A DNA stretch of 64,000 bases from IMG/VR virus record IMGVR_UViG_3300010352_001543; one strand, written 5' to 3'. Both the position numbers and the translations under genes were made by a program. The first letter of the stretch is position 1. The number at the start of each line of letters is the position of its first letter. Of the stretch, positions 593 to 61,709 are shown piece by piece. The notes beneath the pieces are model-generated. The model did no database searches. It had not been told where the DNA came from and was given only the letters and a program-made list of their open reading frames with translations. Origin of the DNA: a virus. Taxonomy: Duplodnaviria > Caudoviricetes.

Positions 593-1253
593 ATAATATC
601 TCTCTAAAATGATTTGTAATTATTGTTATATTTTCTAAAATTTCCGAGTTGAAATTGTTGTCGGAAGTCCAATTATAAAATTCGTTTAAAAATATTAATC
701 TATCTTCTAAATTAGTAATAGTATATTCATTAAGTTTATCATCAATGTAAACTATGAAATCTCTGATCATATCATTTCCATTCACATCAGTTAGCCGAGC
801 CATTGAATATTCACAGAAATTAAATATTTTTTTGTAGTCATAAGAAAAATCTTCCCAAACAAATTCATAGGTAGTGAATTCTAAATCTGAATTGTATCGG
901 AGAATAATTTTATTGTAACTATCCACCGTATTTCTTAAAGTTTCGTTTGATTCTTGTATTGTATGAACATTACTTTCATTAACAAAAAATTCTGAACATA
1001 GGTCATATACATCACAAACTACACAATCTCCATAAACCGGGAAATCCAATAATTTGACTGCATTTTCATTTAGTGATGTTTCTAATTTTATTTTTTCGAA
1101 AAATAATTTAAAGTCCAAGAAAATCCAAAATTTTCCGTTATAAATAGGAACAAAAGTTGTTTTTAATATATCAAATATCATACCAGGAGTAACTTCTTTC
1201 TTAATTTTTACATCAAGAACTTCGCCGGAAACCTTTAATATTTTTAATGCCAT
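576..1253 (-). CDS. Hypothetical protein
   Basis: 225-aa ORF tightly packed in the operon. Confidence 0.7.
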   Translation of the reverse strand: MALKILKVSGEVLDVKIKKEVTPGMIFDILKTTFVPIYNGKFWIFLDFKLFFEKIKLETSLNENAVKLLDFPVYGDCVVCDVYDLCSEFFVNESNVHTIQESNETLRNTVDSYNKIILRYNSDLEFTTYEFVWEDFSYDYKKIFNFCEYSMARLTDVNGNDMIRDFIVYIDDKLNEYTITNLEDRLIFLNEFYNWTSDNNFNSEILENITIITNHFREILYGEEE

Positions 1254-2609
1254 TTAAATCTCTTCTTCAATATCTTCATCTTCAATAACATATTGTTCTA
1301 TTTCCTTAAATTCGGAAAGTATTTTACTGTCAATATCTTTTACAATATTATGCTTCGAAAATAAAGTAGATTCTATTTTTTTTGTTAATTTTTCTAACTT
1401 TTTTTCGTCATCCGTCTTGCAGTTGACTAAGTCCATTCTTGTCTTGTTGGATAGATTTTGTAAACTTTCAATTGAAAGCTCCCTTATCTTTATGTTGTTT
1501 AATCTTTGTTTAATTTCAGATCCAAACTTTTTCAAATACAATTCTATTTCTTTCTCTGACCTTTTTTTCTCTACCATAAATTCAATGAATTTAATTTTTT
1601 CATCCACGAATTGAATTTCTTTAATAACATTACTTATTAACTTTTCAGTAAATAATTTTTCATTTAAAAGGACCACGTTTCGAAAATCGATTAAATAATC
1701 TTTTATGTTAGCATACTCCAGAACCCGGTTGCTTTCAGTGAATGTTATATTTTCTGTTATAACAACACTGACAATCTTTTTCACCGCTTTTATAAATTCA
1801 GGTGTTTGGGATTCTCTATTTATCTTTAAAGTAAAATCAATATGGTCTTTTGAATTATTATCAATTCCTATCTCAAAATCTAAATCGGAAACAACATCAT
1901 TAAGTTTTTCTAAAAATGTTTTATACTTTATAAAAGGAGGGACATTATAAATTCGAACTGTGTTTTTTTCTTGAACAACATCACCTTGAAATAGCCAGCA
2001 TCTTCCATCTATATCAGCTTGTTTAATAGATCCATTATAATTTTGAAGGTAAGGAGTTAAATCTGCTTTATCATTACCCTTCATGAATTTTTCTAACTCT
2101 TCAAATTTTCTTGGGAGAATTCTAGTAGCGAACCCAACAGCTATACCTATAGTAAAATTTAATAATCCAATCGGAAAATTAACTTTTAGAGGGTCTTGTG
2201 AATAATCTACTAAAGTATAATCATTTATTATTTTATATTCATCTATAATATTTTTAATTTTAGGATTTATTTTAACAGAAGTGTAACGCGGTGAAGCAGG
2301 AGTTTGGTCAACCGGAGAACCGAAAAATCCATCACCTTCTAAAAGATTAACCGCATTTAAATATGGTCGAGCTAATCGGGATATACCATTTGATAATGAC
2401 GCATCACCGTGGTGATACCCTTTAATAATATCACCAACCAGATTCAAGGTTTTCCTAAAATCAGTAGGGGCGGTAGTCAGAATCAATCGATGTAGTGGTG
2501 TTAATGTATCGAAAAACGACGGAATACCTCTACTTGAAATTGTATATAAAGCATAATCTTTATAGTCATTATTAATATACTCTGAAATTTGTCTTGTCTT
2601 ATGAAACAC
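1254..2609 (-). CDS. Type IIA DNA topoisomerase, GyrA/ParC-like subunit (T4 gp52-like)
   Basis: YALYTISSRGIP, YHHGDAS and ASPRYT (catalytic Tyr) motifs. Confidence 0.93.
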   Translation of the reverse strand: MFHKTRQISEYINNDYKDYALYTISSRGIPSFFDTLTPLHRLILTTAPTDFRKTLNLVGDIIKGYHHGDASLSNGISRLARPYLNAVNLLEGDGFFGSPVDQTPASPRYTSVKINPKIKNIIDEYKIINDYTLVDYSQDPLKVNFPIGLLNFTIGIAVGFATRILPRKFEELEKFMKGNDKADLTPYLQNYNGSIKQADIDGRCWLFQGDVVQEKNTVRIYNVPPFIKYKTFLEKLNDVVSDLDFEIGIDNNSKDHIDFTLKINRESQTPEFIKAVKKIVSVVITENITFTESNRVLEYANIKDYLIDFRNVVLLNEKLFTEKLISNVIKEIQFVDEKIKFIEFMVEKKRSEKEIELYLKKFGSEIKQRLNNIKIRELSIESLQNLSNKTRMDLVNCKTDDEKKLEKLTKKIESTLFSKHNIVKDIDSKILSEFKEIEQYVIEDEDIEEEI

Positions 2610-2898
2610 TTGTTAAATCTCCCAAATCTTCTAAATCTTTTGTTATTCCATTGGCCATGCTATTAAACATATTATATGTTATTTTGTAGGTAACGCCGGA
2701 GTTAAATATCATCCAGTATCCTGAACTTTCTATAGTATCTTCACTATCAATATAGCCAAGAAATGCTATTTCATTAACATTAAAAAATGTTCTAAAATCG
2801 TTTATCTTTGATGTAGCTTGTTTATTTTGTTTATCCAACTCCATATCATCAAGCATTTTAAGTAATCGCTCTTGTTCCTCTAAAGTAATTTCTTCCAT
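2599..2898 (-). CDS. Hypothetical protein between the topoisomerase subunits
   Basis: 99-aa ORF overlapping the gp52-like start. Confidence 0.6.
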   Translation of the reverse strand: MEEITLEEQERLLKMLDDMELDKQNKQATSKINDFRTFFNVNEIAFLGYIDSEDTIESSGYWMIFNSGVTYKITYNMFNSMANGITKDLEDLGDLTSVS

Positions 2899-2901
2899 AT
2901 T

Positions 2902-3408
2902 TTAAATCTCTTTATCTTCTACTTTTAACCAATTTTTTCTGTATTTTACATCAGATCCGAAAACTACATCTAAATACTTATCTGATTTTTTATTTGTTTT
3001 AATTTTAACCAGGTTCATATCTTTAAAAATAAATTTCCAGTCCTCTTTGTCCATTGAACCAACACCTTTTAAATATCTTAGATTCTTTTTGGTTTTATAC
3101 TCATTATTATCTAAATTATATTCATAGTGTCTTTCTTTATTTTCATCATATGAAATCAACGGCATTATCAATTTATATAATTTGTTTTTCTTTAACACAT
3201 CAGGGAACCAACGGGCGAACAGATTCATTAATAAGGCGGTTATGTGGTTACCGTCACAGTTATGAGAAAGTAAATAACAATTATTAATCTTAATAAAAAA
3301 ATTATTAATTTCATCCACCTCTATATCATATAATTCAGTTTTTTGTTTAATTTTTTTTATTGATTGAGGCTTCATCAATATAAAATCTTCTATTCTTAAA
3401 ATTTCCAT
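2902..3408 (-). CDS. Topoisomerase GyrB-like C-terminal part, preceded by a split-intein C-half (IntC, 3259-3408, 50 aa)
   Basis: LYDIEVD...NFF...LLSHN|C (intein blocks F/G), then CDGNHITALL (TOPRIM) and RYLKGVGS. Confidence 0.92.
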   Translation of the reverse strand: MEILRIEDFILMKPQSIKKIKQKTELYDIEVDEINNFFIKINNCYLLSHNCDGNHITALLMNLFARWFPDVLKKNKLYKLIMPLISYDENKERHYEYNLDNNEYKTKKNLRYLKGVGSMDKEDWKFIFKDMNLVKIKTNKKSDKYLDVVFGSDVKYRKNWLKVEDKEI

Positions 3409-4497
3409 TTAATTTAATTCCATTATAGTGTTATTATCAGTTATCTGATACAAAGCATCTAATAAATTAGTCTCTGTTAGTTTATATGAATCCCAAATGA
3501 TTAAAATAGATACCGGGTTCATTTTTTCTTTAATTTTTTCTAATCGGTTTTTGTCTTTTTTCCATATCTGTTCATATGTCATTTTTGTTTGTTTCAATAT
3601 TTCTGTTCCTTGATATATTGCTGGATTTCCATGCCAATAATCTCCATAATATTCTATTATAACATTTAAATTTGGTAAATAATAATCTACGAAATAATTT
3701 CTTTTTTCCATTTCTACCATATATTCCATGACATATTCAAAATTGAGATTATCTAAGATGTCTTTGATTTTAAAACTTATTTTCGAAGGTCCACTTTGAT
3801 ACTTCCAACTTCGTTTAGAAGCTTGTATTTTTTTCCATCTCTTGGTTCCTTTTATTTCACCAAATCTCTCAATATTTCCGTTTAAACTACTCGAATATAT
3901 TAAAGCGTTAGTCTTATGCTCCCATTTTTTGGTTCCTTCTATAATACCAAACTTATCTATATAATATTGTTTAGTTGAACTATAAGCAATTTTATTATTT
4001 CTTTCCTTATATTTCTCTGTTCCTTTTGATTCACCATAACGTTCTATAAAACCTTTTAAATCACATCTTGAAGTATTTTCTCTAACTCCTCTGGAACGGA
4101 TAAATTTTTGTTCTTTTATCGAAATCTTTTTTAATTTTGCTCCATATTCCATTATACAAGAAATTCTATCGAATTTTATTCCTTTGTTATAAGGAACTCC
4201 CAAATATTCTAAACTTCTTTTATTCAAACATTCTATATCATTACAACTATATACTTCATATGACCTATAGAATGTTTTTTCTGAATAATCTACTGTTAGA
4301 TTAGGGATAGCATCTCTGTTACAAAAAGCACAATTTTCTATTTTAAATTCTGGTTTAATATTTATGAATTCTTTGTCGTAATCTGAAAAATATTCATATA
4401 ATGTTAAATTATGTACTCTTTTAATATGGGAACCTACATAGCTATTATTTGCTGATACTTCTTTGCCACATATTTTACATTTATATTTTTCCGTCAT
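3409..4497 (-). CDS. Free-standing homing endonuclease (N-terminal Zn finger, 'ERYGE.KG' repeats, C-terminal Vsr/DUF559-like nuclease)
   Basis: CKIC...H...H, FVDYYLP..NVIIEYYGDYWHGNP...D..R...IIW; inserted between the two split-intein halves. Confidence 0.85.
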   Translation of the reverse strand: MTEKYKCKICGKEVSANNSYVGSHIKRVHNLTLYEYFSDYDKEFINIKPEFKIENCAFCNRDAIPNLTVDYSEKTFYRSYEVYSCNDIECLNKRSLEYLGVPYNKGIKFDRISCIMEYGAKLKKISIKEQKFIRSRGVRENTSRCDLKGFIERYGESKGTEKYKERNNKIAYSSTKQYYIDKFGIIEGTKKWEHKTNALIYSSSLNGNIERFGEIKGTKRWKKIQASKRSWKYQSGPSKISFKIKDILDNLNFEYVMEYMVEMEKRNYFVDYYLPNLNVIIEYYGDYWHGNPAIYQGTEILKQTKMTYEQIWKKDKNRLEKIKEKMNPVSILIIWDSYKLTETNLLDALYQITDNNTIMELN

Positions 4498-4551
4498 ATA
4501 TGATTTCCGTAATTTTTATTAATATTATATATATTAACACGGATATCATAT
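4498..4551 (-). promoter_or_regulatory. Translation-initiation-sequestering hairpin with an AATATATA box in its loop
   Basis: Arms 4498-4510 and 4539-4551 are complementary at 12/13 positions; box at 4528-4535. Confidence 0.7.
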
Positions 4552-4553
4552 TT

Positions 4554-6383
4554 TTACTTTTTTATTAAAAAACAATCAGTTTTTTTTATATTTTTTGCTT
4601 TTTCTTGAATAACTTCATTGTCTCTATAGATATAAAAAATATGATTTTCTGAACATCTAATAACCTCACCATTTACAATAAATTCAAATATTCTGTCTTT
4701 GGTCGTTTTTATAATTTGATTAATTTTATGAAAATTATTATCCGAACCTAATACCATATCATCATAAGTAACATCTTTTAAATGTTTATCTCCAGAATCA
4801 GTTTTAATTAAAGTCATACCGTCTAAACAATCCATATCACTTGTTATAACTACTTTATCATAAGTACAAGTTTTACCACCATCCTCTACATTCAAGTTTA
4901 AAATATTCATTAAATCTATTATTTCTTGATTGTTAGATAAGTCAGACAAATGCCTGGCGTTTTTGATTTTCCCTTTCAATGCGTAAATTGAATGATTAAC
5001 TGGGTCTCGTTGGGAAGAAATCGCTGCCTTAGATGAGCCACCCTCAGTTATAAAGAGAATTGATTTGTTTTTCGAAGGAATAAATTTATCAGAAAAAATA
5101 AGTTGTTTATTTTTCTTTTTATTCCTTTTAATCTTCTTTAAGTCTTCCGAATAATTTTTATTTTCTATAGCTATTATTATATTTTCATATAAATCAGATT
5201 TTATGAAATCTTTACAGACATGTTCCTTCGGTTTAAACGGCATTAACTCTTCCATCATTGCTCTTGAAACAATAAACCTGTTTTTGTTTTGTTCTTGAAA
5301 CTGAACATGCTTTGGTGGAAGATTAATGATTATAGCAGTCTCATAAAATTCAGAAGCTGTTTTTGAACTAAATAGTCTTTCATTTATTTTTTCTTGATAG
5401 AAGGTTTGATGAAATCCACCACATAATGAACCATTAACAAACGATATAGAGGTTGTCTTATCTTTTATGGCTTCCCAAATATAAAGCTCTGTATATTTGT
5501 TAAGTTTAAAATGAAATGAATTTGAAGGTAGTAAAGGAATATTTAAATCCAAAACTTCTTTATCCCAAATCAATTCGAATTCAACCGTCCGGAGGTTATC
5601 ATCGTTCAGCTTAGAAAAATTTCTGAAAAGGCATTTAGTAAAAACAAATTCTTTATCAAATTTAATATTTTTAAAAGATTTCTTCCGGGCAATATATGTT
5701 ATAGTTGTGCCCTTAGTAGTTTTTGATTTTTCGTATGTTTTGCCTTCAGTAACGAAATCCAACCACTGCTGTTCATAAATGTATCCAGAATTGGTTGTCT
5801 CTACTTCAAATAAATCAGAAAGCATATTGACCGCTGAAAGTCCAACACCATTCGTTCCGATCACAGTGACATCAGATTTATCATTCTGAAAATTTGATCC
5901 TGCTCTAAGTAACGAAACTGCCGTTTCTACATTGGTCAACCCGGAGGTTATATTAATTTCATTTGGATTCATAAATCCACGACCATCGTCACTAACAATC
6001 ACCTTATTAGTGTTAGAATTTATATTAACCGAAATCTTTTTAAATTCATATCCTTCTTTCTTACAGCGAAGTGCTTCATCAAATGCATTGTCGATAACTT
6101 CATCCAATAATCGATAAAATCCATCTGAATAGTTAATTTCTTTCTTTACTAAAAGACCATCTTCGAAAATTGGTACTGTTTTAGTTATCATTTCAGTGGT
6201 ACCAACATACATTGCCGGTCTAAGTAAAATATGTTCTCTTTCCGATAAATGAATCACTTCACGATTCACCAAATCATTGTTTTTTTCTTTTTTCAAATCA
6301 TGTTTCCTGTAAATTATATCTTTTATACAACAATGGCCGATGAAATTAAAATTCGTTTCATCGACCATCTTAAAATAATTCAA
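4554..6383 (-). CDS. Topoisomerase GyrB-like N-terminal part (T4 gp39-like) ending in a split-intein N-half (IntN, 4557-4829, 91 aa)
   Basis: EHILLRPAMYVG, EVIDNAFDE, DDGRG, GTNGVG, TEGGS, LKGKIKN; then TSDMD|CLDGMTLI...CSENH. Confidence 0.93.
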   Translation of the reverse strand: MNYFKMVDETNFNFIGHCCIKDIIYRKHDLKKEKNNDLVNREVIHLSEREHILLRPAMYVGTTEMITKTVPIFEDGLLVKKEINYSDGFYRLLDEVIDNAFDEALRCKKEGYEFKKISVNINSNTNKVIVSDDGRGFMNPNEINITSGLTNVETAVSLLRAGSNFQNDKSDVTVIGTNGVGLSAVNMLSDLFEVETTNSGYIYEQQWLDFVTEGKTYEKSKTTKGTTITYIARKKSFKNIKFDKEFVFTKCLFRNFSKLNDDNLRTVEFELIWDKEVLDLNIPLLPSNSFHFKLNKYTELYIWEAIKDKTTSISFVNGSLCGGFHQTFYQEKINERLFSSKTASEFYETAIIINLPPKHVQFQEQNKNRFIVSRAMMEELMPFKPKEHVCKDFIKSDLYENIIIAIENKNYSEDLKKIKRNKKKNKQLIFSDKFIPSKNKSILFITEGGSSKAAISSQRDPVNHSIYALKGKIKNARHLSDLSNNQEIIDLMNILNLNVEDGGKTCTYDKVVITSDMDCLDGMTLIKTDSGDKHLKDVTYDDMVLGSDNNFHKINQIIKTTKDRIFEFIVNGEVIRCSENHIFYIYRDNEVIQEKAKNIKKTDCFLIKK

Positions 6384-6398
6384 AAATAAGCTGCTAAA

Positions 6399-6677
6399 TT
6401 ACCATTTTTCTAAAGGGCAACTTTCAAATTCAAATTTTGTTTTTTGTAGAAGGTTACACCCACAACCGCCTTTTTCCACATCACATACTGGTTTGTTCCA
6501 GAAGATTAAAAAACTGGATGTTGATTTAGTATCACATTTATTACATATTTCTAATCTTCTTTCAGCTTCTTGGTCAGTTGAATAAATTTCATCTTTGTAA
6601 TTAAAAATTTTAATAAATAATCTTCTTAAAAATTTAAAAAAATTAGCAATTCTTTTTATGTTTTGTTTTAAATTCAT
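6399..6677 (-). CDS. Small Cys-rich protein (DUF6171-like)
   Basis: RRLEICNKC...C...CGC.L..K...CPLEKW. Confidence 0.6.
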   Translation of the reverse strand: MNLKQNIKRIANFFKFLRRLFIKIFNYKDEIYSTDQEAERRLEICNKCDTKSTSSFLIFWNKPVCDVEKGGCGCNLLQKTKFEFESCPLEKW

Positions 6678-6686
6678 TGTTATATT

Positions 6687-7034
6687 TTATTTTCTGATTT
6701 CATGCACTCTATGAGTACGAGTACTGAATTGTTTTTTATAAATAAGTAAAGTTTCTTCTATCGTTCGTTTTTCTTTGAAACATTCAATAATCAAATCATA
6801 ATATTTTTGATTAAATTTATTGTCTATATATGTCTCATATTCAGTGAAAGATATCCCATATTCCTGTAAAAACTTAACTTTAAATTGTTCAAAATAGGGA
6901 GCAAAATCATCAGTGAATTGCTCCATAGTTTTTCTTTCATATAAATTCATATCACGAGCTGATCCTTCTTTACCATCAGCAATACTATTCTTTTTATCGA
7001 CTGTTAGCCCACCGAAATTAAACATTCTTTTCAT
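6687..7034 (-). CDS. Hypothetical protein
   Basis: 115-aa ORF in operon. Confidence 0.6.
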   Translation of the reverse strand: MKRMFNFGGLTVDKKNSIADGKEGSARDMNLYERKTMEQFTDDFAPYFEQFKVKFLQEYGISFTEYETYIDNKFNQKYYDLIIECFKEKRTIEETLLIYKKQFSTRTHRVHEIRK

Positions 7035-7042
7035 TTGATATG

Positions 7043-7501
7043 TTACTCCAATCCAGTTGATCCGAAACCACCTGAACCTCTTGCAGTTTCTATCAGTCGA
7101 TCTACTTCTATGAATTTTATTTTTTCGATTTTTTGTAGGACCATCTGAGCAATTTTAGATTGCGGCTTCACTATAAATGGCTTCTTAGAAACATTACAAA
7201 GAATAACTCCTACTTCTCCGCGATAGTCAAAATCGCATGTTCCAGGCGCATTCAAAACAATTACTCCGTTATGTAATGCTAATCCTGATTTAGATCTTAT
7301 TTGAATTTCATATTCAATATCGTCATTTGGTTTTATTTCAACTGAAAAATTCAAAGGAAATAATTTTATTTCTCCCGGTTCCAGAACATAGTCTTCAAAA
7401 TTAGTAGAATATAAATCCATGCCACTTGAACCCATTGTAGCATACTCAGGAATTTTTGTCTTTATATTAGTATCTATTATTTTTAAATGTACAGATTTCA
7501 T
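7043..7501 (-). CDS. dut: Trimeric dUTPase
   Basis: GSSGMDL, SGLA, GTCDFDYRGE, KIAQMV, RGSGGFGSTG. Confidence 0.95.
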   Translation of the reverse strand: MKSVHLKIIDTNIKTKIPEYATMGSSGMDLYSTNFEDYVLEPGEIKLFPLNFSVEIKPNDDIEYEIQIRSKSGLALHNGVIVLNAPGTCDFDYRGEVGVILCNVSKKPFIVKPQSKIAQMVLQKIEKIKFIEVDRLIETARGSGGFGSTGLE

Positions 7502-7611
7502 TGTAATCCAATTTTATTTTTAAAAAATCGATCATAAACGAGTTATAACTAATTTTCGTTTTTGGGTATATAAATTCATATATACCATCACGAAAACAGC
7601 ATATCGATGAT

Positions 7612-8142
7612 TTATGAACGTCTTTTGATTGGTTTAACATATTCTCTATAAGATAATATAGTATTTTCAGGAATCTGCTTCATAACTGGATCACCTTGAT
7701 TATAAGATATACAGGACCAAACTGGATCACCATCATTCAAGTAATGATCAATTTTTGATAATTTCATAGGCATACCATCCGGTAAAATAAAATGGTAATC
7801 TTTGGTTAGTTTACTTGGATTTTGTAGATATTCAGTGGAAGTTATAGTTTGATATTCTTCACTTAATACTGGATTATTCATAAGTTCCAGTTTTTCAATT
7901 TGAAGTGTGTTGATTTCTTTGTTCAATGAATCAATAACTTCTTGCATTTCTTTTTTATCTTTATTTATAGCATCTATACTATCTTGAAGACTGGTGATAT
8001 ATTCTTCGTACTTAGTATTTTTGTTTTCTGAAGAACTATCCGGTTCCACCTCTTTCAGTTGCTTCCGTAAATCTTCTATAATTTCAATTAAATCGCTTTT
8101 TGTCTTGACCGACAAAGAGGAGGATGTAGTTTTTTCTGGCAT
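7612..8142 (-). CDS. Hypothetical coiled-coil protein
   Basis: 176-aa ORF with heptad-rich N-terminal half. Confidence 0.65.
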   Translation of the reverse strand: MPEKTTSSSLSVKTKSDLIEIIEDLRKQLKEVEPDSSSENKNTKYEEYITSLQDSIDAINKDKKEMQEVIDSLNKEINTLQIEKLELMNNPVLSEEYQTITSTEYLQNPSKLTKDYHFILPDGMPMKLSKIDHYLNDGDPVWSCISYNQGDPVMKQIPENTILSYREYVKPIKRRS

Positions 8143-8206
8143 GATTATTAACCTTATTTTTAAATCTTAAATATTATTTTACAAACATCTTTCTTGTTTT
8201 TAAAAT

Positions 8207-8241
8207 AAAAAAGTTCGCTTGATTAATTTTAAGCGAACTTT
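8207..8241 (-). terminator. Rho-independent terminator
   Basis: aaagttcgctt/aagcgaacttt stem with a U-tract on the minus strand. Confidence 0.7.
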
Positions 8242-8271
8242 CAACATCTGATTTATATATTATTGGTTTTT

Positions 8272-8844
8272 CTATGCAAATTTCATTTTATTGTTGCGAT
8301 TATTTTTATTATAATCAGTCAACTTATGTTGTAAAGATTCATATCTTTTATTGATACTATCTATTATTTTTGTTTCTTTGTCAATTGATTGTAATTTCCT
8401 TGTGTTAAATTTTTCATTTTGTTGAGCCATCATAACGATAGTTTTTGGAAATCTTTCTTCAATTTTTTTCAGACGTTGTTGGGTTAGCTCGATCGACTTT
8501 GTTTCGTTTATCGATTGTAATATTTTCTTCTTTTGTTTATCCATCTGAGAAATAGCCAAAAGAAGGCTTCTTTTGAATTTGATATTATTCAGGTATATTT
8601 CTTTTTTGATACTCGATATCTTTTTAGGTATCCGATCAATCTTGTCACTTAACTTTTGAGCGCTCATTTTTAAATTCTCTAAGTTCAGTTGTTTTTTCAG
8701 TTCTTTCTTGTTTAGAACTGTAGTGGTTGGTTTATTATCAACCTTTTTTGTCTTCACCTTAATATTATTTTTAGGTGTTTGTTTAGAAGTTTCTAATAAA
8801 ATTGGTGAAACTTCCGATGCGTGTTTGTTGATTGCTGTATTCAT
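8272..8844 (-). CDS. Lys-rich basic coiled-coil protein
   Basis: 190-aa ORF; stands alone between two terminators. Confidence 0.6.
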   Translation of the reverse strand: MNTAINKHASEVSPILLETSKQTPKNNIKVKTKKVDNKPTTTVLNKKELKKQLNLENLKMSAQKLSDKIDRIPKKISSIKKEIYLNNIKFKRSLLLAISQMDKQKKKILQSINETKSIELTQQRLKKIEERFPKTIVMMAQQNEKFNTRKLQSIDKETKIIDSINKRYESLQHKLTDYNKNNRNNKMKFA

Positions 8845-9060
8845 TGCTGCATTCCTTATATTAATAATTAAAAACGATTTCAGTATACTAATTTAATAAA
8901 CTGAAATTATGTTGCCATGTAATTAATTAATATGTGTCAGTTTTTATATGTATTTTCAAATAACTTGTTTATGATGATTAATTTTTCATCTATGTATGTA
9001 TTGACTATTAAGTATAAAAATTAGTGTAAATTATTTTCAGAATTATTATTTTTAAACAAT

Positions 9061-9092
9061 AAAAAAACAAGGAATTTTAAAATTCCTTGTTT
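9061..9092 (-). terminator. Rho-independent terminator
   Basis: aaacaaggaattt/aaattccttgttt stem with U-tract. Confidence 0.75.
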
Positions 9093-9147
9093 AAAAATAA
9101 TTAGTTAATTATAAAAAATTATCTTATTTTTATATTAACTACATCAC

Positions 9148-9507
9148 CTACTTCTCCGGTTTCCATAAAAAACCTAGTACATTCGAATCTAAAGAGGCCG
9201 TGACTGCTTTACCGTTTGAATCGGATGCTACACCTGTTCCTATAGCGGCTGCTAAAATTTGTTCCCCTAATTCAACAGGACCAACTCCTAAAATTTGTAT
9301 TATTCCGGGTGTGTTGGCAGTTAGACCATCTTCTAAAGATATTCCCATAGCGGGTCCATCAAAAATTGCTTGTCCGTCCGCTGGATATGCAACGAATCTA
9401 TGAGGTGAAACAGAAGATGTTTTAGTTACCCTATAAAAGTTAGGATTAGTTTTATATTTGCCTGATTTACCAGTCTCTTCTTGTTCTAATGAGCATCTAT
9501 TTATCAT
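9148..9507 (-). CDS. Capsid decoration/cement-like (DUF2190-like) protein; C-terminus probably extends to 9119 via a -1 shift
   Basis: Paralogous to the C-terminal domain of 9524-10522 (VTKTS..P.RFVA...MGI...GKA); strong AGGAGG ribosome-binding site. Confidence 0.55.
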   Translation of the reverse strand: MINRCSLEQEETGKSGKYKTNPNFYRVTKTSSVSPHRFVAYPADGQAIFDGPAMGISLEDGLTANTPGIIQILGVGPVELGEQILAAAIGTGVASDSNGKAVTASLDSNVLGFLWKPEK

Positions 9508-9523
9508 ATCTATAACCTCCTAT

Positions 9524-10522
9524 TTACTTTAATTTCACTAATATATTATCGCCGATTTGTCCTGTTCCATATGAAATAGCATTAGGTGACATTTCTACAT
9601 CACAGATTATTGCTTTTCCTGTTATGTCAGTTGAAAGTTCTGTTCCTGTTGTGTTAACAGCTTCTGCTAAATTAACATAGCCTAAACCAAAAACTGTTAA
9701 AGAACCTTCGGTGTTTGCTAATAGTTCATTCTCTGATGTAATACCCATACAATATTCTCCTTCAGCTGGCACACCAGTCGCTGAAAATGCAACAAATCTA
9801 TATCGAGGAATAGCGGATGTTTTAGTAACATTTAAAGTATTTGTTGTTCCACCACCAGCAGGTCCAGTTGGTCCTGTTGGTCCACCTTCAGGACCTGTAG
9901 GTCCTTGTGGACCGGTTGGTCCGGTTACAGTACTTTCATCCCCTTGTGGTCCAGTTGGTCCTGTAGGACCAGTAACAGTACTTACTGCACCTGTAGGTCC
10001 AGTAACAGTACTCGACGCACCTGTAGGTCCAGTAACAGTACTCGCTGCACCTGCAGCGCCTGTAGGTCCGGTCGGACCAATTGGTCCAATATCACCTTCA
10101 GCTCCTTTAGGTCCTGTTTTTCCGGTTGGTCCGGTTGGTCCGGTTGGTCCGGTGACAGAAGGACCTGTTGGACCTGTTGGACCTTCTATATCTGAATCTG
10201 CTCCGGTTGGTCCGGTGGCGCCAACTGGTCCTGTATCACCTGTCTCTCCTTTTCTTCCGGTAGGCCCTTGTGGTCCGGTAGGCCCAGTAACAATACTTGC
10301 TGCACCTGTAGGTCCAGTAACAGTACTCGCTGCACCTGCAGCGCCTGTAGGTCCGGTCGGACCAATTGGTCCAATATCACCTTCAGCTCCTTTAGGTCCT
10401 GTAGATCCTTGTGGTCCAGTAGGTCCTGTATCACCTTCAGCCGGACCTGTTGGTCCGGTTGCGCCCATAGGTCCTTGTGTCCAAGCAGGTGCTCCTAAAA
10501 TTACATATTCTGGATTTGCCAT
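9524..10522 (-). CDS. Collagen-like (GPT) fibre protein with C-terminal DUF2190-like domain
   Basis: Gly-X-Y repeats; C-terminal RYRFVAF...MGIT...GKA...GD.I.V.L. Confidence 0.75.
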
Positions 10523-10612
10523 TATATCTCTCCAATTTTTTTAATCGTTTTCATTATTTATGTTTTATTTGAGTATTATAATGTATATATTTTTTAAAAA
10601 AATCACTAAAAC

Positions 10613-10647
10613 AAAAAAGAGAATATCTTCTTGAAATATTCTCTTTT
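10613..10647 (-). terminator. Rho-independent terminator
   Basis: aaaagagaatat/atattctctttt stem. Confidence 0.65.
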
Positions 10648-10666
10648 AATAGTAAAAAAATTCTTT

Positions 10667-10999
10667 TTATTTTCCACCATCTACAATAGTATATACATCA
10701 ACAGTTCCTGTTGGTGCATCTTCTCCTGTTCCAGGAACCCATCTAATTCTCAACCCTAAACAGAGACTGTTATTTGGAAATGAAGTGCTTCCCGAAGCTG
10801 AATTTAACTCAGCTGTATGAATTTGAATCCAAACTTCATCATCTTTTTCCATTAACATATCTATATAAATATTACCTACACCGGTCATGTTTTTCCATAT
10901 ATATGTAGTAGCAGAATGTAACTGATAATATCGCTCAGCTGATATTATAGTAGGAGAAGTAAAAGCTACTCCTAAATCTTGATCTTTTAAAATTATCAT
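10667..10999 (-). CDS. Hypothetical beta-rich (probable virion) protein
   Basis: 110-aa ORF preceded by an AATATATA box. Confidence 0.55.
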   Translation of the reverse strand: MIILKDQDLGVAFTSPTIISAERYYQLHSATTYIWKNMTGVGNIYIDMLMEKDDEVWIQIHTAELNSASGSTSFPNNSLCLGLRIRWVPGTGEDAPTGTVDVYTIVDGGK

Positions 11000-11025
11000 T
11001 GAATTTTTGTTTTTTTATTTATATA

Positions 11026-12579
11026 TTAAAAAGCCTCATATTCCTGTTCCTTCAAATCTTCTATAAACTGATAGATTGTTTTATCAGCTATGAAGTCAGT
11101 CATATTTTGTGCTTGTTGAGAAAGTGTCTCACTAAATATAGGTTCGATAGTTTCTCGTTCCATACTTTCGTGATAATGCTTAAATATTTCATTATAATAT
11201 TTAACACAATAAGAATAGTTTTGTTCTATAAATCTTTTATCTCGCTTATTGGTTTGATAATAATATATGTAAAGTTGCGCCATCACTTGTATCGCCCACA
11301 TATCAATATAATTATTAAACGGTTTAACTTTCTTAGCATGTTTAACCGCATATATCATATTATCCGTATATCCTACAAAACTTTGGTCATAAGAATATTG
11401 CGCATTGTTGATTCTTGTAATCGAATCGCGCTTCTCATGCCAGTAATAAACCACGTCAGGTAAGAACATTATTTTTTCTTGTTCTGAACTAACCAACCTA
11501 ATAATAGTATTAAATCCATTGTCTTCATTTGCACGTGTCTCATTAAATCTAATTTTATATTTGTCTATGAATGCACGAGTATAAAGTTTTCCGAACATCC
11601 AAACTAAATCACTTTGATGATTTATAAAAGTTAAATTTTCGTGTTGTTCAGCAAAGCATCCAACTATCGTATGATAACCTTCATTCGTTTCAACCGCCCT
11701 CAAAAGAATTTCAAGAGCAAACGCTCCAGCAAAAGTGTCATCGGCATCAATACACGTGAAATAAGGAGAACCGGAATTATCTATTCCGTACTGTCTCGCC
11801 ACACCAGGTCCACCATTTTCAGGAAGAGTTATTTCTTTAATTTCTACATACTCACTGAACTGATCCACAAATTTTTCATATCCAATGCCATCAGCATCGT
11901 TTACAATAGTTATACTTAGTTTATCAACAATTGATTGCATAACAATAGAAGCGAGTGTCCGTTCTATTGTATTTTGAGCATTGTAAGCGGGAATTATAAC
12001 GTCTATTTTTTTATTCATATTTATTGGTTTCCTTGTATCGTGCCACCACATAGTTCCTCTACCTGGATCTGTAGCACAATGTAAAAAGTTTACATTTGGA
12101 TAAATCTTATCAACCGCAGAACGAATTGAATCTTTTTCATAATCATGTCCGACCATAATTCCTTTACATTTAGGAATCCAATTAGTAAGGTCTTTGGTTA
12201 TTGCTTCAAAAGAATGGTCAGCATCAATAAAAATTAAATCGAATTTCTTTTTAATCTTTTTCGCTGCTTCATCCGTTGTCATTTGAAGAACTGTTGCTTC
12301 AATATCAAATCTTTTAAGGTTGTCTTTGAATATTTTTAAAAGATTTTGTTCTTTTGCTTCTTTATGCTCTTGTTCTTCACCTGGAGTTCCTAAAAATGTA
12401 TCAACAGCATAGACAGTTAGATTTTTCTTTTTGATTAAATCTGCTATCGAGCAAAGGCTCCTACCTTTCCATACACCGAGTTCTATAATTGTTCCGTTAT
12501 CTGGAACTTGTTCAACTAATTTTCGATATTGTTTTATATCACCGTCGTGAAACCATCCATCTGGAAGTTTTTTCATCAA
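11026..12579 (-). CDS. Class I SAM methyltransferase (Methyltransf_24-like) fused to a GT2 glycosyltransferase
   Basis: IELGVWKGRS, AVDTF, IFIDADHS, GHDY; then VIIPAYN, IVNDA, GPGVARQYG, IDADD, NEDNGF. Confidence 0.88.
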   Translation of the reverse strand: MMKKLPDGWFHDGDIKQYRKLVEQVPDNGTIIELGVWKGRSLCSIADLIKKKNLTVYAVDTFLGTPGEEQEHKEAKEQNLLKIFKDNLKRFDIEATVLQMTTDEAAKKIKKKFDLIFIDADHSFEAITKDLTNWIPKCKGIMVGHDYEKDSIRSAVDKIYPNVNFLHCATDPGRGTMWWHDTRKPINMNKKIDVIIPAYNAQNTIERTLASIVMQSIVDKLSITIVNDADGIGYEKFVDQFSEYVEIKEITLPENGGPGVARQYGIDNSGSPYFTCIDADDTFAGAFALEILLRAVETNEGYHTIVGCFAEQHENLTFINHQSDLVWMFGKLYTRAFIDKYKIRFNETRANEDNGFNTIIRLVSSEQEKIMFLPDVVYYWHEKRDSITRINNAQYSYDQSFVGYTDNMIYAVKHAKKVKPFNNYIDMWAIQVMAQLYIYYYQTNKRDKRFIEQNYSYCVKYYNEIFKHYHESMERETIEPIFSETLSQQAQNMTDFIADKTIYQFIEDLKEQEYEAF

Positions 12580-14813: not shown

Positions 14814-17804
14814 TTAAATCTCCACCCAAGTATTATCAGGACAAAAAAATATAATGTCTGCCGTTTCGCAATAACCCACTATTCTAACAATATTTGTAGT
14901 TGTCGCCGGAGCAGTTTCCGTAATTGCACCACCTGTTGCTGCACTTATATACTGTGCTTTTGTAGGTGTCATATTGAAAACTGAAGCATCTTGAAAATAA
15001 CCTTTAATTAGAAATATGCCAGGATTATTTGCTGTAATAGCGTCTGTTGCCATTACTATCATTACCCCACCAGATGTTAGCACAGAATCCGCTTTTGCTA
15101 ACCACATTTTTCCATCCGATTTTAAGTAGCATATTTGACCAGATGTTAAATTTTCCCCTGCGGTTTTTGTTACCGTAATTCCAGAATAAGTATGATCTGC
15201 AGGGGCAGCGGTAAAACTTATAGTCGTACTAGCAGGTCCTGTTGGTCCTGTGACAGTGCTGGCAGCTCCTTGCGCTCCGGTTGGTCCGGTTGGTCCAGTG
15301 ACAGTGCTGGCAGCTCCTTGCGCTCCGGTTGGTCCTGTTTTGCCAGTTGGACCGGTTACAGTGCTCGCAGCACCTGTTGGTCCTGTTGGTCCAGTGACAG
15401 TTGAGGCAGCTCCTTGCGCTCCGGTTGGTCCGGTTGGACCAGGAACTAAACTTGCCGTTCCTTGAGCACCTGTTGGTCCTGTTGGTCCAGTAATTGTTGA
15501 GGCAGCTCCTTGAGCACCGGTTGATCCTGTTGGACCGGTTACAGTGCTTGCAGCACCTGTTGGTCCTGTTGGTCCAGTAATTGTTGAGGCAGCTCCTGTT
15601 GGTCCTGTTTTGCCAGTTGGACCAGTGACAGTGCTTGCAGCGCCTTGCGCTCCAGTTGGTCCGGTTGGTCCGGTTACTGTTGAATCAGCTCCTTGCGCTC
15701 CGGTTGGTCCGGTTGGTCCTGTTGGACCAGTGACAGTTGAGGCAGCTCCTTGCGCTCCTTGTGCTCCGGTTGGTCCTGTTGGACCAGTGACAGTTGAGGC
15801 AGCTCCTTGCGCTCCGGTTGGTCCTGTTGGACCAGTGACAGTTGAGGCAGCTCCTTGCGCTCCGGTTGGTCCTGTTGGACCAGTGACAGTTGAGGCAGCT
15901 CCTTGCGCTCCGGTTGGTCCTGTGACAGTGCTTGCGGCTCCTTGCGCTCCGGTTGGTCCTGTTGGACCAGTGACAGTTGAGGCAGCTCCTTGCGCGCCTG
16001 TTGGTCCTGTTGGTCCAGTGACAGTTGAGGCAGCTCCTTGCGCTCCGGTTGGTCCGGTTGGTCCGGTTGGTCCGGTTACTGTTGAATCAGCTCCTTGTGC
16101 TCCGGTTGGTCCTGTTGGACCAGTGACAGTTGAGGCAGCTCCGGTTGGTCCTGTTTTACCTGTTGGTCCGGTGACAGTTGAGGCAGCTCCAGTTGGTCCT
16201 GTTTTACCTGTTGGACCAGTGACAGTTGAGGCAGCTCCTTGCGCTCCGGTTGGTCCTGTTGGACCAGTGACAGTTGAGGCAGCACCTGTTGGACCAGTGA
16301 CAGTTGAGGCAGCTCCTTGCGCTCCGGTTGGTCCGGTTGGACCAGTGACAGTTGAGGCAGCACCTGTTGGACCAGTGACAGTTGAAGCAGCTCCTTGCGC
16401 TCCGGTTGGTCCTGTTGGACCAGTGACAGTTGAGGCAGCTCCTTGCACTCCGGTTGGTCCTGTTGGACCAGTGACAGTTGAAGCAGCTCCTTGCGCTCCG
16501 GTTGGTCCTGTTGGACCAGTGACAGTTGAGGCAGCACCTTGTGCTCCGGTTGGTCCTGTTGGACCAGTGACAGTTGAGGCAGCACCTTGCGCTCCGGTTG
16601 GTCCTGTTGGACCAGTGACAGTTGAGGCAGCACCTTGTGCTCCGGTTGGTCCTGTTGGACCAGTGACAGTTGAGGCAGCACCTGTTGGACCAGTGACAGT
16701 TGAGGCAGCTCCTTGCGCTCCGGTTGGTCCTGTTGGTCCAGTGACATTGCTGGCAGCTCCTTGCGCTCCGGTTGGTCCTGTTGGTCCAGTGACAGTTGAG
16801 GCAGCTCCTTGCGCGCCTGTTGGTCCTGTGACAGTTGAGGCAGCTCCTTGCGCTCCGGTTGGTCCTGTTGGACCAGTGACAGTTGAGGCAGCTCCTTGCG
16901 CTCCGGTTGGTCCTGTTGGACCAGTGACAGTTGAGGCAGCTCCTTGCGCGCCTGTTGGTCCTGTTGGTCCAGTGACAGTTGAGGCAGCTCCTTGCGCTCC
17001 GGTTGGTCCTGTTGGTCCAGTGACAGTGCTTGCAGCGCCTTGCGCTCCGGTTGGTCCGGTTGGTCCGGTTACTGTTGAATCAGCTCCTTGTGCTCCGGTT
17101 GGTCCTGTTGGACCAGTGACAGTTGAGGCAGCACCTTGCGCTCCGGTTGGTCCTGTTGGACCAGTGACAGTTGAGGCAGCTCCAGTTGGTCCTGTTTTAC
17201 CTGTTGGACCAGTGACAGTTGAGGCAGCTCCTTGCGCTCCGGTTGGTCCTGTTGGACCAGTGACAGTTGAGGCAGCACCTTGCGCACCTGTTGGTCCTGT
17301 TGGACCAGTGACAGTTGAGGCAGCTCCTTGCGCTCCGGTTGGTCCTGTTGGACCAGTGACAGTTGAGGCAGCTCCTTGCGCTCCGGTTGGTCCTGTTGGT
17401 CCGATTGGACCAGTGATAGAAACACCAGCAATGCCTCGATTCCCGGTTGGTCCTGTTGGTCCTTTAATATTAGAAACAGGTCCTGTTGGTCCTGTTGGTC
17501 CAGTAATTATTGAGGCAGCTCCTTGCGCTCCGGTTGGTCCGGTTGGTCCAACCGCACCACGAACACCATCCAAACCATCTGATCCGGTTGGTCCCATTTG
17601 TCCGGTTGGTCCAGTAGGACCAATAACAGGCAAAGAAGAAACTCCATCTAAATCAGAATACCAAATTCCTTCAAAATAAGTATATGTTTTATGTGAATCA
17701 GTACAAAAATAAGTAGATAAATTTTCTAAAATACTATGATTTATGTTATTTATCTCTTCTTCTAAACCGAAGTGCTTATCGTAATAACCGGACTTTATCG
17801 CCAT
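14814..17804 (-). CDS. Long collagen-like fibre protein
   Basis: Tandem [16 protein letters not shown] repeats followed by a globular C-terminal domain ([25 protein letters not shown]). Confidence 0.85.
15233..17625. repeat. Coding tandem repeat array with a 48-bp main unit
   Basis: Unit approx. ccagtgacagttgaggcagctccttgcgctccggttggtcctgttgga, with shorter variants. Confidence 0.95.
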
Positions 17805-26944: not shown

Positions 26945-27001
26945 TATTTTTATCCTTTATATTTTAAAAATTTTCGTTACTATATATATTTATGTTTATA
27001 T

Positions 27002-31602: not shown

Positions 31603-31675
31603 TTGTCTTAAATTTATTTTATTTCAAAATTTGTTTTATAATGTATATATTACTTTAGAATTCTACAGAAAATAA

Positions 31676-38145: not shown

Positions 38146-38585
38146 AAGAAGAAAAATAAAAAGAATTAAAGAATAAATTCAAAGAGCAATTGTCGATGTG
38201 AAAAGAATCCATTCAAAGACTAACATCCATCGAAAGAACAATTGTTGTTGTCGCAACTATAATTTATTATAATATTATAATATATTTTGAATGATTAGCA
38301 TTACTAATTATTTATACATAGTTTTTAATCACTTTGTAACAAGAATTTTAAAAATAATTGAAAATAATTGAAAATAATTTGTAACTACTTTGATTCAAAC
38401 AAAACTAAAAATAAAAATATTTTTACTTTAATTTATACAACCAATATTGTAAAAACTAAATAATAATCTTAAATATATATTATTAGTTTTCATAACACAT
38501 TTTTTAAATCATTTTATGAAAATTTTTGTTTTAATATATATTATATAAGAAAAATATTAAATAGTTTATATAAAAGTAACAATTC
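38146..38585. promoter_or_regulatory. AT-rich divergent control region at the strand switch
   Basis: 3x aaaataatt(g/t) at 38351-38380; palindromic AATATATATT at 38472-38481 and 38533-38542. Confidence 0.6.
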
Positions 38586-39833
38586 ATGGTCCAAGTAGAA
38601 CAACATATAGTTAAAAAATCCAACAAGAACACCGAATGGCAAGTGATTGACCATTTAGCATTCCTATCGAAAAACTTGTACAATACCTGCCTTTGGACCA
38701 CCAAGAATCATTTTGAAGCAACCGGCAAGTGGATGAGGTACAGTGAAATGTATAAAAAGTTCTACAATGAGCAGAATCCTTCTTTCATTGCTCTTCCAGC
38801 TGCAACTGCTCAGCAGATCATGATGGTGATGGACAAGAACATGAAGAGCTATTTTGCTTTACTAAAAATGTATAAAAAGAACAAGAAATCATTAAACGGA
38901 TGCCCAAAGTTTCCTAAATACAAAGACAGTTTGGACGGCAGAAATATACTTATTTTTACTTCTCAACAAATGAGGCTACAAAAAGATGAGACAATTAATT
39001 TTCCAAAGAAAACTGACCTAAGACCACTAAAGACTAAAATTCCAGCTGGAAGCCTGAAACAAGTAAGAATAGTACCACAGTCCAGTTGCTATATCATTGA
39101 GGTTGTCTATGAAAAAGAAGTAGTACAAGCATTTCCACCTAATGATTCCTGGTTGTCTATCGACCTTGGAGTCAATAACTTAATGACCTGTTTCGATACT
39201 GTTTCCATCAAACCAACAATCATTAATGGTAAACCACTCAAATCCATCAACCAATTCTACAACAAGAAACATGCTAAACTACAATCACAACTACAAAAAC
39301 AGTATCCAAAACGACATAAGTCAAAAAAACTAAATAAATTAACAACAAAAAGAAATCGTAAAATTAAAGACTACCTCCATAAGAGTTCCAGGTTTGTAGT
39401 CAATTATTGCTTGGAATCAGGCATCTCTAACATTGCTATAGGTTATAACGCTGAATGGAAACAAAACGTTCAGCTCGGCAGTAAGAATAACCAAAACTTT
39501 GTTCAGATACCTTTTCTAACACTAATAAATCAAATAGAATACAAAGCAGCGTTGCTTGGCATAACTGTTATAAGGAACGAAGAATCCTACACCAGTAAGT
39601 GCTCAGCGATGGACCTTGAACCAGTTAAAAAACATGACACATATTGCGGTAAGCGCATAAAGCGCGGCATGTTTATAACTGGTACTGGTCAACGAATTAA
39701 TGCTGACTTGAATGGAGCCATAAATATTCTTCGAAATGTAGCTGGAGATAAGGAACAAATTATTAAATTTGTTCAAACTCAATCCAGTAGAGGTCAAATC
39801 GTTTGGCCGTTTCATGCATGCATGAATAAATAG
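38586..39833 (+). mobile_element. tnpB: Solo TnpB RNA-guided endonuclease (IS200/IS605-IS607 superfamily), no TnpA nearby
   Basis: SKNLYN, SIDLGVNNL (RuvC-I), DYLHKSSR, NEESYTSKCS, INADLNGAINI (RuvC-III). Confidence 0.92.
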
Positions 39834-55074: not shown

Positions 55075-55117
55075 TTCGTAAAATAATATATAAATTATAC
55101 AAAAATAACCAAAGTAC

Positions 55118-61670: not shown

Positions 61671-61709
61671 CTAAATATATAACTATATAAATAAAAATAT
61701 CAAACGAAC

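Follow-up and report, generated by a model that had tools for sequence, protein, structure and literature searches.

A putative natural split intein in the TOPRIM motif of a phage topoisomerase II and its allelic family

We describe a fractured gene in a 64,000-nucleotide stretch of the virus record IMGVR_UViG_3300010352_001543 (Duplodnaviria; Caudoviricetes), hereafter the window, in which the large subunit of a phage type II topoisomerase is encoded in two parts, with the break falling inside the D-x-D-x-D-G metal-binding motif of its TOPRIM domain. The upstream part (N-gene) ends in a putative N-terminal intein fragment (IntN), the downstream part (C-gene) begins with the putative C-terminal fragment (IntC), and a free-standing endonuclease gene lies between them. 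The residues at the break, the alignment with uninterrupted orthologues and the similarity of both tails to known inteins suggest that the two halves very probably trans-splice into one large subunit. The locus extends the known fractured-gene layout to a host enzyme for which split inteins are all but undescribed, and it involves no new mechanism.

A topoisomerase gene broken in its metal-binding motif

The elements of the locus, all on the minus strand, are as follows.

4554..6368 (-): N-gene, N-terminal part of the topoisomerase II large subunit plus IntN, 604 amino acids (aa) from ATG (open reading frame (ORF) list, Pfam, PHROGs)
4830..6368 (-): N-extein, ending ...VVITSDMD and contributing the opening half of the metal-binding motif D-x-D-x-D-G of TOPRIM
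4557..4829 (-): putative IntN, 91 aa, starting CLDGMT, with block B RCSENH (S60-E-N-H63) and the C-terminal strand ...TDCFLIKK
4498..4551 (-): 5' untranslated region (UTR) of the endonuclease gene, with a predicted three-tier hairpin (RNA folding, comparison of relatives)
4528..4535 (-): promoter-like motif AATATATA, 30 nucleotides (nt) upstream of the endonuclease ATG, in the 5' arm of the inner stem
3409..4497 (-): gene for a putative free-standing homing endonuclease, 362 aa (ORF list, phrog_22677, homologue alignment, structure model)
3412..3819 (-): Vsr-like catalytic domain of the endonuclease, residues 227-362 (Foldseek, VIA-align)
2902..3408 (-): C-gene, IntC plus the C-terminal part of the topoisomerase II large subunit, 168 aa (ORF list, Pfam, PHROGs)
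3259..3408 (-): putative IntC, 50 aa, with block F YDIEVD and block G LLSHN
2905..3258 (-): C-extein, 118 aa, opening CDGNHI with Cys+1 (codon 3256-3258), with the second half of the D-x-D-x-D-G motif and the TOPRIM_C region

The N-gene encodes the GHKL ATPase, the transducer and the TOPRIM domain up to D-M-D, to which IntN is directly fused. An alternative start, the TTG at 6383, would give a 609-aa form (4554-6383) in which the last residue of the N-extein is number 518 according to the boundary script; the ATG at 6368, which is the choice of the gene callers and gives the 604-aa form on record, is more likely. The ATG of the C-gene abuts the stop codon of the endonuclease gene (TAAATG), and the whole IntN-endonuclease-IntC segment measures 1.57 kb. 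The lengths of the three parts (91, 50 and 362 aa) and the junction residues had been given in an earlier note made from the sequence, and every one of these numbers agrees with the ORF list and the boundary script.

Both genes match phrog_543, 'DNA topoisomerase II large subunit' (E 6.5e-65 for the N-gene). In Pfam the N-gene matches HATPase_c and Toprim, the C-gene matches TOPRIM_C, and each of the two also matches Intein_splicing. The C-gene is also matched over almost its full length by phrog_7229, which we take to be a gp60-like small-subunit family. Compared by sequence with solved structures, the N-gene product finds phage topoisomerase II entries as its best matches, T4 gp39-gp60 among them. 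Intein-less orthologues of 605-606 aa were found in a large protein collection (P0011-P0015; 53% identity in the extein portion of the query region). When they are aligned with both exteins, the last residues of the N-extein fall on the D-x-D of ...IATDWD and the C-extein begins at the very next residue, PDGIGHI. Two other phages, with D-A-D-T-D-G (...YSDADTDG) and D-A-D-V-D-G (...VDADVDG), give the same gap-free junction with no residue extra or missing, and the junction alignment stays free of gaps against orthologues of 605-633 aa. Since the intein-less orthologues align without a gap across the junction, splicing would restore D-M-D-C-D-G, with Cys+1 in the variable fourth position of the D-x-D-x-D-G motif. 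The earlier note had placed the break inside this motif, and the alignment bears this out. The expected joined product has 631 aa (513 + 118), and once the exteins are joined the features of a type IIA GyrB-like large subunit are complete, namely the GHKL ATPase, the TOPRIM E...D-x-D-x-D-G and the C-terminal TOPRIM-associated region. From the position of the break it is reasonable to infer that enzyme activity would be lost without splicing.

A tblastn search of the cultured-phage collection with the three proteins of the locus found only intein-less topoisomerase genes. Matches that seemed to enter the intein, in H7 and H31 (huge uncultured phages), H43 (Vibrio phage D479) and H46 (Pectobacterium phage POP12), proved to be ordinary uninterrupted genes encoding 604-633-aa large subunits or a 1082-aa fused topoisomerase II; the ORFs of H7 and H31 read D-E-D-A-D-G or D-A-D-T-D-G at the junction site.

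Several lines of evidence indicate that the two tails are intein halves. On the Pfam Intein_splicing model, IntN covers positions 26-92 and IntC positions 118-155, which are complementary parts. When IntN was compared with solved structures, the gp41-1 intein (6qaz) came first, with E 3.5e-4 for the single sequence and 4e-5 for a three-sequence profile, and the Prp8, TFIIB, NrdHF and PolB inteins were likewise among the matches. The single IntC sequence gave no match to a solved structure; the best solved matches of a five-sequence IntC profile, all weak, were Npu DnaE IntC and the DnaX and PolB inteins. For a non-circular test, a profile was built only from seven contiguous inteins of other proteins, that is, from alleles at the same junction in which the intein is unbroken. 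Against this profile IntN reaches 90.4 bits (positions 2-96) and IntC 47.0 bits (positions 105-156), again on complementary stretches and beyond what chance would give.

The full class-1 residue set is present in the window: Cys1, S60-x-x-H63, YDIEVD, H49-N50 and Cys+1. Cys1 directly follows ...TSDMD and is invariant in three close IntN sequences and seven aligned contiguous alleles, and intein position 1 is Cys or Ser in all 40 sequences with the D-x-D junction. Block B of IntN, S60-E-N-H63, conforms to T/S-x-x-H, and its His is kept in most alleles. At the other end, H49, N50 and Cys+1 (C51) are invariant in five split IntC alleles. The first ~14 residues of IntC form a conserved segment of the intein family that is also found in contiguous alleles. 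A start of IntC at Met12, which would shorten it to 39 aa, was considered and ruled out, given that this Met is Val in two relatives and that the residues upstream of it are conserved, contiguous alleles included.

The contiguous allele most similar to the halves in the window (P0046:113-267) was modelled with AlphaFold2 (AF2), with a predicted local distance difference test (pLDDT) score of 92.2. A Foldseek search of the PDB with this model listed 50 matches, and all 50 have the Hint fold; nearly all are inteins, accompanied by bacterial intein-like (BIL) and hedgehog domains. The closest listed match by template modelling (TM) score and root-mean-square deviation (rmsd) is gp41-1 (6qaz, 6riz; TM 0.86-0.87, rmsd 1.9-2.0 Å, 25-26% identity). 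The split-intein reading of the earlier note is supported by the matches to solved inteins, the collinear mapping of the halves on contiguous alleles, the Hint fold of the modelled allele and the complete class-1 residues. Its description of the intein as compact did not hold: at 91 + 50 = 141 aa the pair lies inside the 138-157 aa range of the contiguous alleles, and the gp41-1 intein is smaller than this.

The endonuclease gene and its hairpin leader

The ORF between the halves matches phrog_22677, and its phage relatives are annotated 'VSR endonuclease'. The collection contains 26 homologues, most of them 330-385 aa long. Their alignment reveals a C2H2-like zinc finger at the N-terminus followed by three YGxxxGxxKY/W repeats, and a C-terminal block that reads ...VDYYLP...IIEYYGDYWHGNP...W.KDK.R...IIW. 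In an alignment of 20 members of the family, D271, E282 and H289 never vary and D315 hardly does; these residues correspond to the E-D-x-H-D pattern by which the Vsr-like homing endonucleases are defined (PMC3239194). An AF2 model of the endonuclease (pLDDT 85.8) was compared with solved structures. With residues 227-362, the top specific Foldseek matches were Vsr (1vsr, 1cw0) and I-Bth0305I (3r3p), each with probability 1.00, and VIA-align gave Z 11.0 for 1cw0 (128 residues aligned, rmsd 3.8), Z 9.9 for 1vsr and Z 9.4 for 3r3p (94/97 residues aligned, 24% identity, rmsd 3.1). Two unrelated mitoribosomal chains reach similar Z values (10.9 and 10.4), and thus the Vsr-like assignment rests on fold and motif together. 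The endonuclease found nothing significant in Pfam, and its sequence search against solved structures gave only a zinc-finger hint and spurious matches of the YGxxxGxxKW repeats to designed propeller proteins. On its conserved motifs and modelled fold we assign the protein to the Vsr-like, EDxHD family. The endonuclease gene that the earlier note had seen between the halves is borne out as a same-strand 362-aa ORF with Vsr-like fold and motifs.

The 56 nt ahead of the endonuclease ATG are predicted to form a three-tier hairpin (-15.2 kcal/mol, z -3.98, 0 of 200 shuffles as good), in which the ribosome-binding region is paired, as are the bases that run up to the AUG. The same architecture recurs in two relatives of the locus from other samples, L005 and L007 (-19.9 kcal/mol, z -7.6 and -8.1), in whose hairpins the central UCCGU/ACGGA stem is preserved to the letter and base changes fall on both arms of the outer and inner stems. 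The motif AATATATA stands at the same place in both relatives. The window contains 18 copies of it, where 11.8 +/- 3.2 are expected; 13 of the 18 sit 20-62 nt upstream of a same-strand start codon, that of the tail-sheath gene included, and on each arm of the window the motif points the same way as the genes (e.g. 31644-31651, 26983-26990, 55085-55092 and 61674-61681). Its position makes AATATATA a candidate phage promoter element. Scans for sigma-70-type promoters and for terminators gave results at chance level. In phage T4, translation of homing endonuclease genes is confined to late transcripts by a hairpin that masks the ribosome-binding site and contains a late promoter, and by analogy the translation of the endonuclease described here is probably restricted by its hairpin.

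Proposed trans-splicing, its alternatives and the intein family

The locus can be explained as follows. A class-1 mini-intein has invaded the gene for the topoisomerase II large subunit, the equivalent of T4 gp39 plus gp60, at the D-x-D/x-D-G codons (here and below a slash marks the splice junction), and a free-standing Vsr-like endonuclease gene has broken this intein at the usual endonuclease-insertion point. The locus therefore makes two polypeptides, N-extein-IntN (604 aa) and IntC-C-extein (168 aa), whose intein halves would associate into the Hint fold, with Cys1, the block B His, the terminal His-Asn and Cys+1 carrying out protein trans-splicing. The spliced 631-aa large subunit, its D-M-D-C-D-G restored, would work with the intact gp52-like subunit. 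The endonuclease would cut intein-less alleles near the site in co-infecting phages, whereupon the cassette would be copied in. In read-through transcripts the hairpin would cover the ribosome site and start codon of the endonuclease gene, and the promoter-like motif inside the hairpin would give rise to a shorter transcript unable to form it. The data show the gene anatomy, the homologies, the fold of one allele, the conserved catalytic residues, purifying selection and the hairpin with its conservation, whereas splicing, the activity and target of the nuclease and the regulatory logic are what we infer.

Several observations weigh against this explanation. No spliced product has been observed. 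Each half taken alone scores under the Pfam intein cut-off (24.8 bits for IntN and 14.7 bits for IntC, against 35.8 bits). Block B has Ser where Thr is usual; gp41-1 aligns there with the same C-S-E-x-H (C-S-E-E-H). The Hint fold was modelled on a contiguous allele 42-45% identical to the halves in the window, not on the two chains of the window together, and the promoter role of AATATATA is based on position statistics in one window alone. Finally, T4 and its relatives run topoisomerase II with a large subunit split in TOPRIM by MobA, whose parts are joined non-covalently via terminal extensions, as described in a preprint (10.1101/2022.08.31.505936), so that an active enzyme can also arise without a covalent link.

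The last of these points bears on an alternative in which the halves would be a non-covalent assembly module that does not splice, giving a two-chain large subunit as in T4 gp39 + gp60. A fragmented phage NrdA is likewise reported to be assembled through interaction domains derived from a mobile element (PMC3045599). Such docking is nonetheless unlikely here: all class-1 splicing residues are conserved in the split alleles and would be unneeded in a mere docking module, catalysis is hard to square with a folded Hint domain of 141 aa lodged inside the metal-binding motif, after its second and before its third acidic position, and the ratio of nonsynonymous to synonymous substitution rates (dN/dS) is as low in the intein halves as in the exteins.

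The ratios come from relatives of the locus. L005, L006 and L007, from other samples, have the same three-gene build at 60-78% protein identity, the more distant P0004 and P0005 have it too, and C-gene homologues of 164-166 aa share the build of the C-gene. Between L005 and L007, dN/dS is 0.07 for IntN, 0.02 for IntC, 0.08 for the endonuclease and 0.05-0.09 for the exteins. Over all comparisons it ranges from 0.07 to 0.27 for IntN, from 0.02 to 0.13 for IntC and from 0.02 to 0.27 for every part, although in comparisons against the window dS is near saturation and the computable ratios are <=0.27. These values bear on a second alternative, that of a decaying, non-functional topoisomerase gene with a dead intein in a phage relying on host enzymes. 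Decay does occur in the intein family, as in the contiguous alleles P0087 and P0106, which are without the penultimate His (GN and KN). At this locus it is decidedly improbable, however, given three intact ORFs, low dN/dS in every part, the same build kept in L005 and L007 at 60-78% amino acid identity, and an intact gp52-like partner gene. In three of three pairs the synonymous divergence of IntN and the endonuclease is below that of the flanking exteins (few codons); because of this lower divergence, there is a hint that the cassette moved between phages after their divergence.

A third alternative is an assembly artefact, such as a chimeric contig of two phage variants. The window is metagenomic, and it may derive from the very two activated-sludge runs in which it is found whole. 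However, the identical C-gene stands on eight contigs of the collection, the diverged relatives from other samples keep the gene order, and in a groundwater run of another study exact contigs of 151-194 nt bridge the extein/IntN junction (4740-4890) and the end of IntN with the UTR (4468-4661) with no differences. The eight C-gene contigs, the groundwater junction contigs and the relatives together make an artefact very unlikely, to the point that we give it almost no weight. In the sequencing runs, no joint without the endonuclease or without the intein was seen. One RNA run yielded only two near-exact 151-nt contigs, both in the N-extein, and says nothing firm on transcription. Wastewater and groundwater runs hold small shares, and the habitat claim is limited to activated sludge.

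Two of the relatives differ from the window downstream of the C-gene. In L007, a 104-aa ORF (P0006, at 2579-2893) directly after the C-gene repeats the last 100 C-extein residues at 82% identity; it resembles a remnant of the resident gene end, left behind when the cassette brought its own downstream extein. In L005, 19 consecutive small ORFs (5523-11470), 14 of them of 85-100 aa, stand between the C-gene and the gp52-like gene, where the window has one 99-aa ORF; these may be a tandem family.

The IntN of the window belongs to a family of alleles at the D-x-D/C junction. A search of 1.84 billion cluster representatives with the IntN profile gave 382 matches at E<=1e-3, 36 of them at E<=1e-10, and the best 150 of the 382 were classified by allele, in clusters at 50% identity. 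Among these best 150, 31 are split alleles at the D-x-D junction in which the intein ends at the C-terminus of the protein, 9 are contiguous or internal alleles whose sequence runs past IntN at the same junction, and 4 are N-terminally truncated fragments. Seven of the nine are contiguous mini-inteins of 138-157 aa followed by CDG, of which five end in S/T-H-N. In the joint alignment, the end of IntN and the start of IntC both fall within a short linker of the seven contiguous alleles. All ten family members checked against Pfam are GyrB/TOPRIM proteins, and one contiguous allele scores above the Intein_splicing cut-off (49.7 vs 35.8 bits). The closest solved relative of the family is gp41-1.

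One member of the family, P0044, is a D-x-D/C allele in which IntN is followed by ~118 more residues in the same ORF with no stop and no IntC; it may represent a fusion of IntN with a different domain or result from read-through. The IntN profile also matches related inteins at other junctions that recur. In P0116, P0128 and P0168 the junction is GG(F/S)P/C, which on its sequence resembles the P-C motif at the catalytic site of cytosine-5 DNA methyltransferases, and in P0081, P0109 and P0130 it is RF.....R/C; several of the latter group are C-terminal (split) forms.

A wider interpretation is possible, and we offer it as a speculation that we would sooner doubt than believe. The D-x-D/C site of phage topoisomerase II might be the host of a large natural allelic intein family without prior family description, comprising no fewer than 31 split clusters and 9 contiguous or internal ones; it might supply a panel of orthogonal split inteins if many of its members are fast and do not cross-react; and splicing might perhaps be a timing step for topoisomerase assembly, tied to late-promoter control of the endonuclease. 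Fast and non-cross-reacting pairs, if they exist, would make a ready-made orthogonal panel with native Asp(-1)/Cys(+1) junctions. The occurrence of split and unsplit alleles at one site is useful for the question of how inteins become split, and offers a direct test of an endonuclease gene breaking an intein.

Relation to known fractured genes and other features of the window

Dassa et al. 2009 (PMC2677866) described fractured genes of uncultured marine phages at 26 loci of eight enzyme types with GIY-YIG or Vsr-like endonucleases, and split inteins including gp41-1, gp41-8, NrdJ-1, IMPDH-1 and NrdA-2. The locus in the window has much in common with theirs: the gene is split at the intein insertion point into two same-strand ORFs carrying IntN and IntC, a free-standing endonuclease gene (Vsr-like in half of their loci) stands between the halves, the endonuclease gene has a hairpin in its 5' UTR, the fracture falls where endonucleases are usually inserted, the loci come from phages and the host enzyme belongs to DNA metabolism. 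The link to 'fractured genes' drawn in the earlier note is sound in all three elements of the layout, namely the two ORFs with intein halves, the Vsr-like gene and the hairpin. The two sets differ in the host enzyme, which is topoisomerase II in the window and gp41 helicase, IMPDH, DnaE, NrdA, NrdJ, DNA ligase or terminase in the accessible account of Dassa et al. (PMC2677866), whose text does not contain the words topoisomerase, gyrase or TOPRIM. The IntC of the window is also longer (50 aa) than those of their inteins, with a family-specific N-terminal extension. gp41-1 is the best match of IntN among solved sequences and shares the C-S-E-x-H context of block B; its host, however, is a DnaB-like helicase and not a topoisomerase, the identity is about one quarter, and its fast splicing need not apply to the pair in the window.

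The same region of the topoisomerase gene is a target of other elements. According to the accessible part of the preprint 10.1101/2022.08.31.505936, HNH (MobA), GIY-YIG and VSR endonucleases insert at residues 466-473 of Topo2L and split the metal-binding site, and one sentence there mentions a metagenomic MGS5 with a VSR endonuclease flanked by Hint and HintC. MGS5 and the window concern the same gene and the same TOPRIM region; the exact intein site of MGS5 and a description of a D-x-D/C family are absent from that part of the preprint. The MobA cassette, as described in the same part, has terminal extensions and translational bypass, no intein and a two-chain enzyme, in contrast to the intein halves of the window. 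The break in the window adjoins the region that is split by the T4 MobA/bypass cassette, where unrelated selfish elements converge with different solutions. The window endonuclease resembles I-Bth0305I (PMC3239194) in its nuclease domain, its D/E/H/D set and an N-terminal modular region before the catalytic domain. I-Bth0305I, however, is encoded in a group I intron of recA and has two NUMOD2 motifs (PMC3239194), whereas the window endonuclease is free-standing between intein halves and has the C2H2-like zinc finger and the three YGxxxGxxKY/W repeats.

A literature search for inteins or split inteins in phage topoisomerase II found no description of a D-x-D/C split intein or of its family. The earlier note had suggested a new split-intein pair; this stands insofar as no description was found, but the pair belongs to a large natural family and its layout is known. 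If splicing is true, a type II topoisomerase would join the enzymes assembled by natural protein trans-splicing, and the family would provide candidate split-intein pairs related to gp41-1 for engineering.

Two further ORFs follow the C-gene, and the five ORFs together form a tight minus-strand gene string (window bases 1250-6400).

2599-2898 (-): 99-aa ORF between the C-gene and the gp52-like gene, without a family match in Pfam or PHROGs
1254..2609 (-): gp52-like topoisomerase II DNA-cleavage subunit, 451 aa (Pfam DNA_topoisoIV E 2e-39, phrog_551)

The gp52-like gene is uninterrupted in the window (YHHGDASL). In the more distantly related L008 (640-1179) and P0005 contigs the gp52-like cleavage subunit is fractured as well: a 169-179-aa ORF ends ...GRYHHGD, followed by an IntN (CLEKNT...), and in the P0005 contigs this ORF is followed by a 316-aa DUF7487 ORF and then a 436-aa DNA_topoisoIV ORF.

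The window comes from a large tailed phage of activated sludge, with genes for a tail sheath, a baseplate wedge and a large terminase; the longest contig with these genes measures 280,711 bp. No close relative was found in the cultured-phage collection, where all matches are below 60% identity and the best is at about 30%. The window holds a second fractured gene, NrdJ, at 45533-48642 (+). A 710-aa ribonucleotide reductase ORF with a sub-threshold Intein_splicing match at residues 627-703 is followed directly by a 325-aa ORF with Intein_splicing at residues 28-98 and a TSCPD domain, with no endonuclease gene between them. The family B DNA polymerase gene may also be split: its ORF at 44122-45531 (+) encodes 469 aa with the exonuclease domain and positions 18-147 of the 453-position polymerase model.

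Gene orientation switches at two palindromic AATATATATT sites (38472-38542), after which stands a 415-aa transposase-like gene (38586-39833; phrog_506, E 5.8e-51). Lastly, two collagen-like proteins with G-P-T-G-P repeats are encoded at 9524-10522 and 14814-17804 (-), in stretches of raised G+C; at 14-18 kb the G+C content is 44-52%, compared with ~30% elsewhere in the window.

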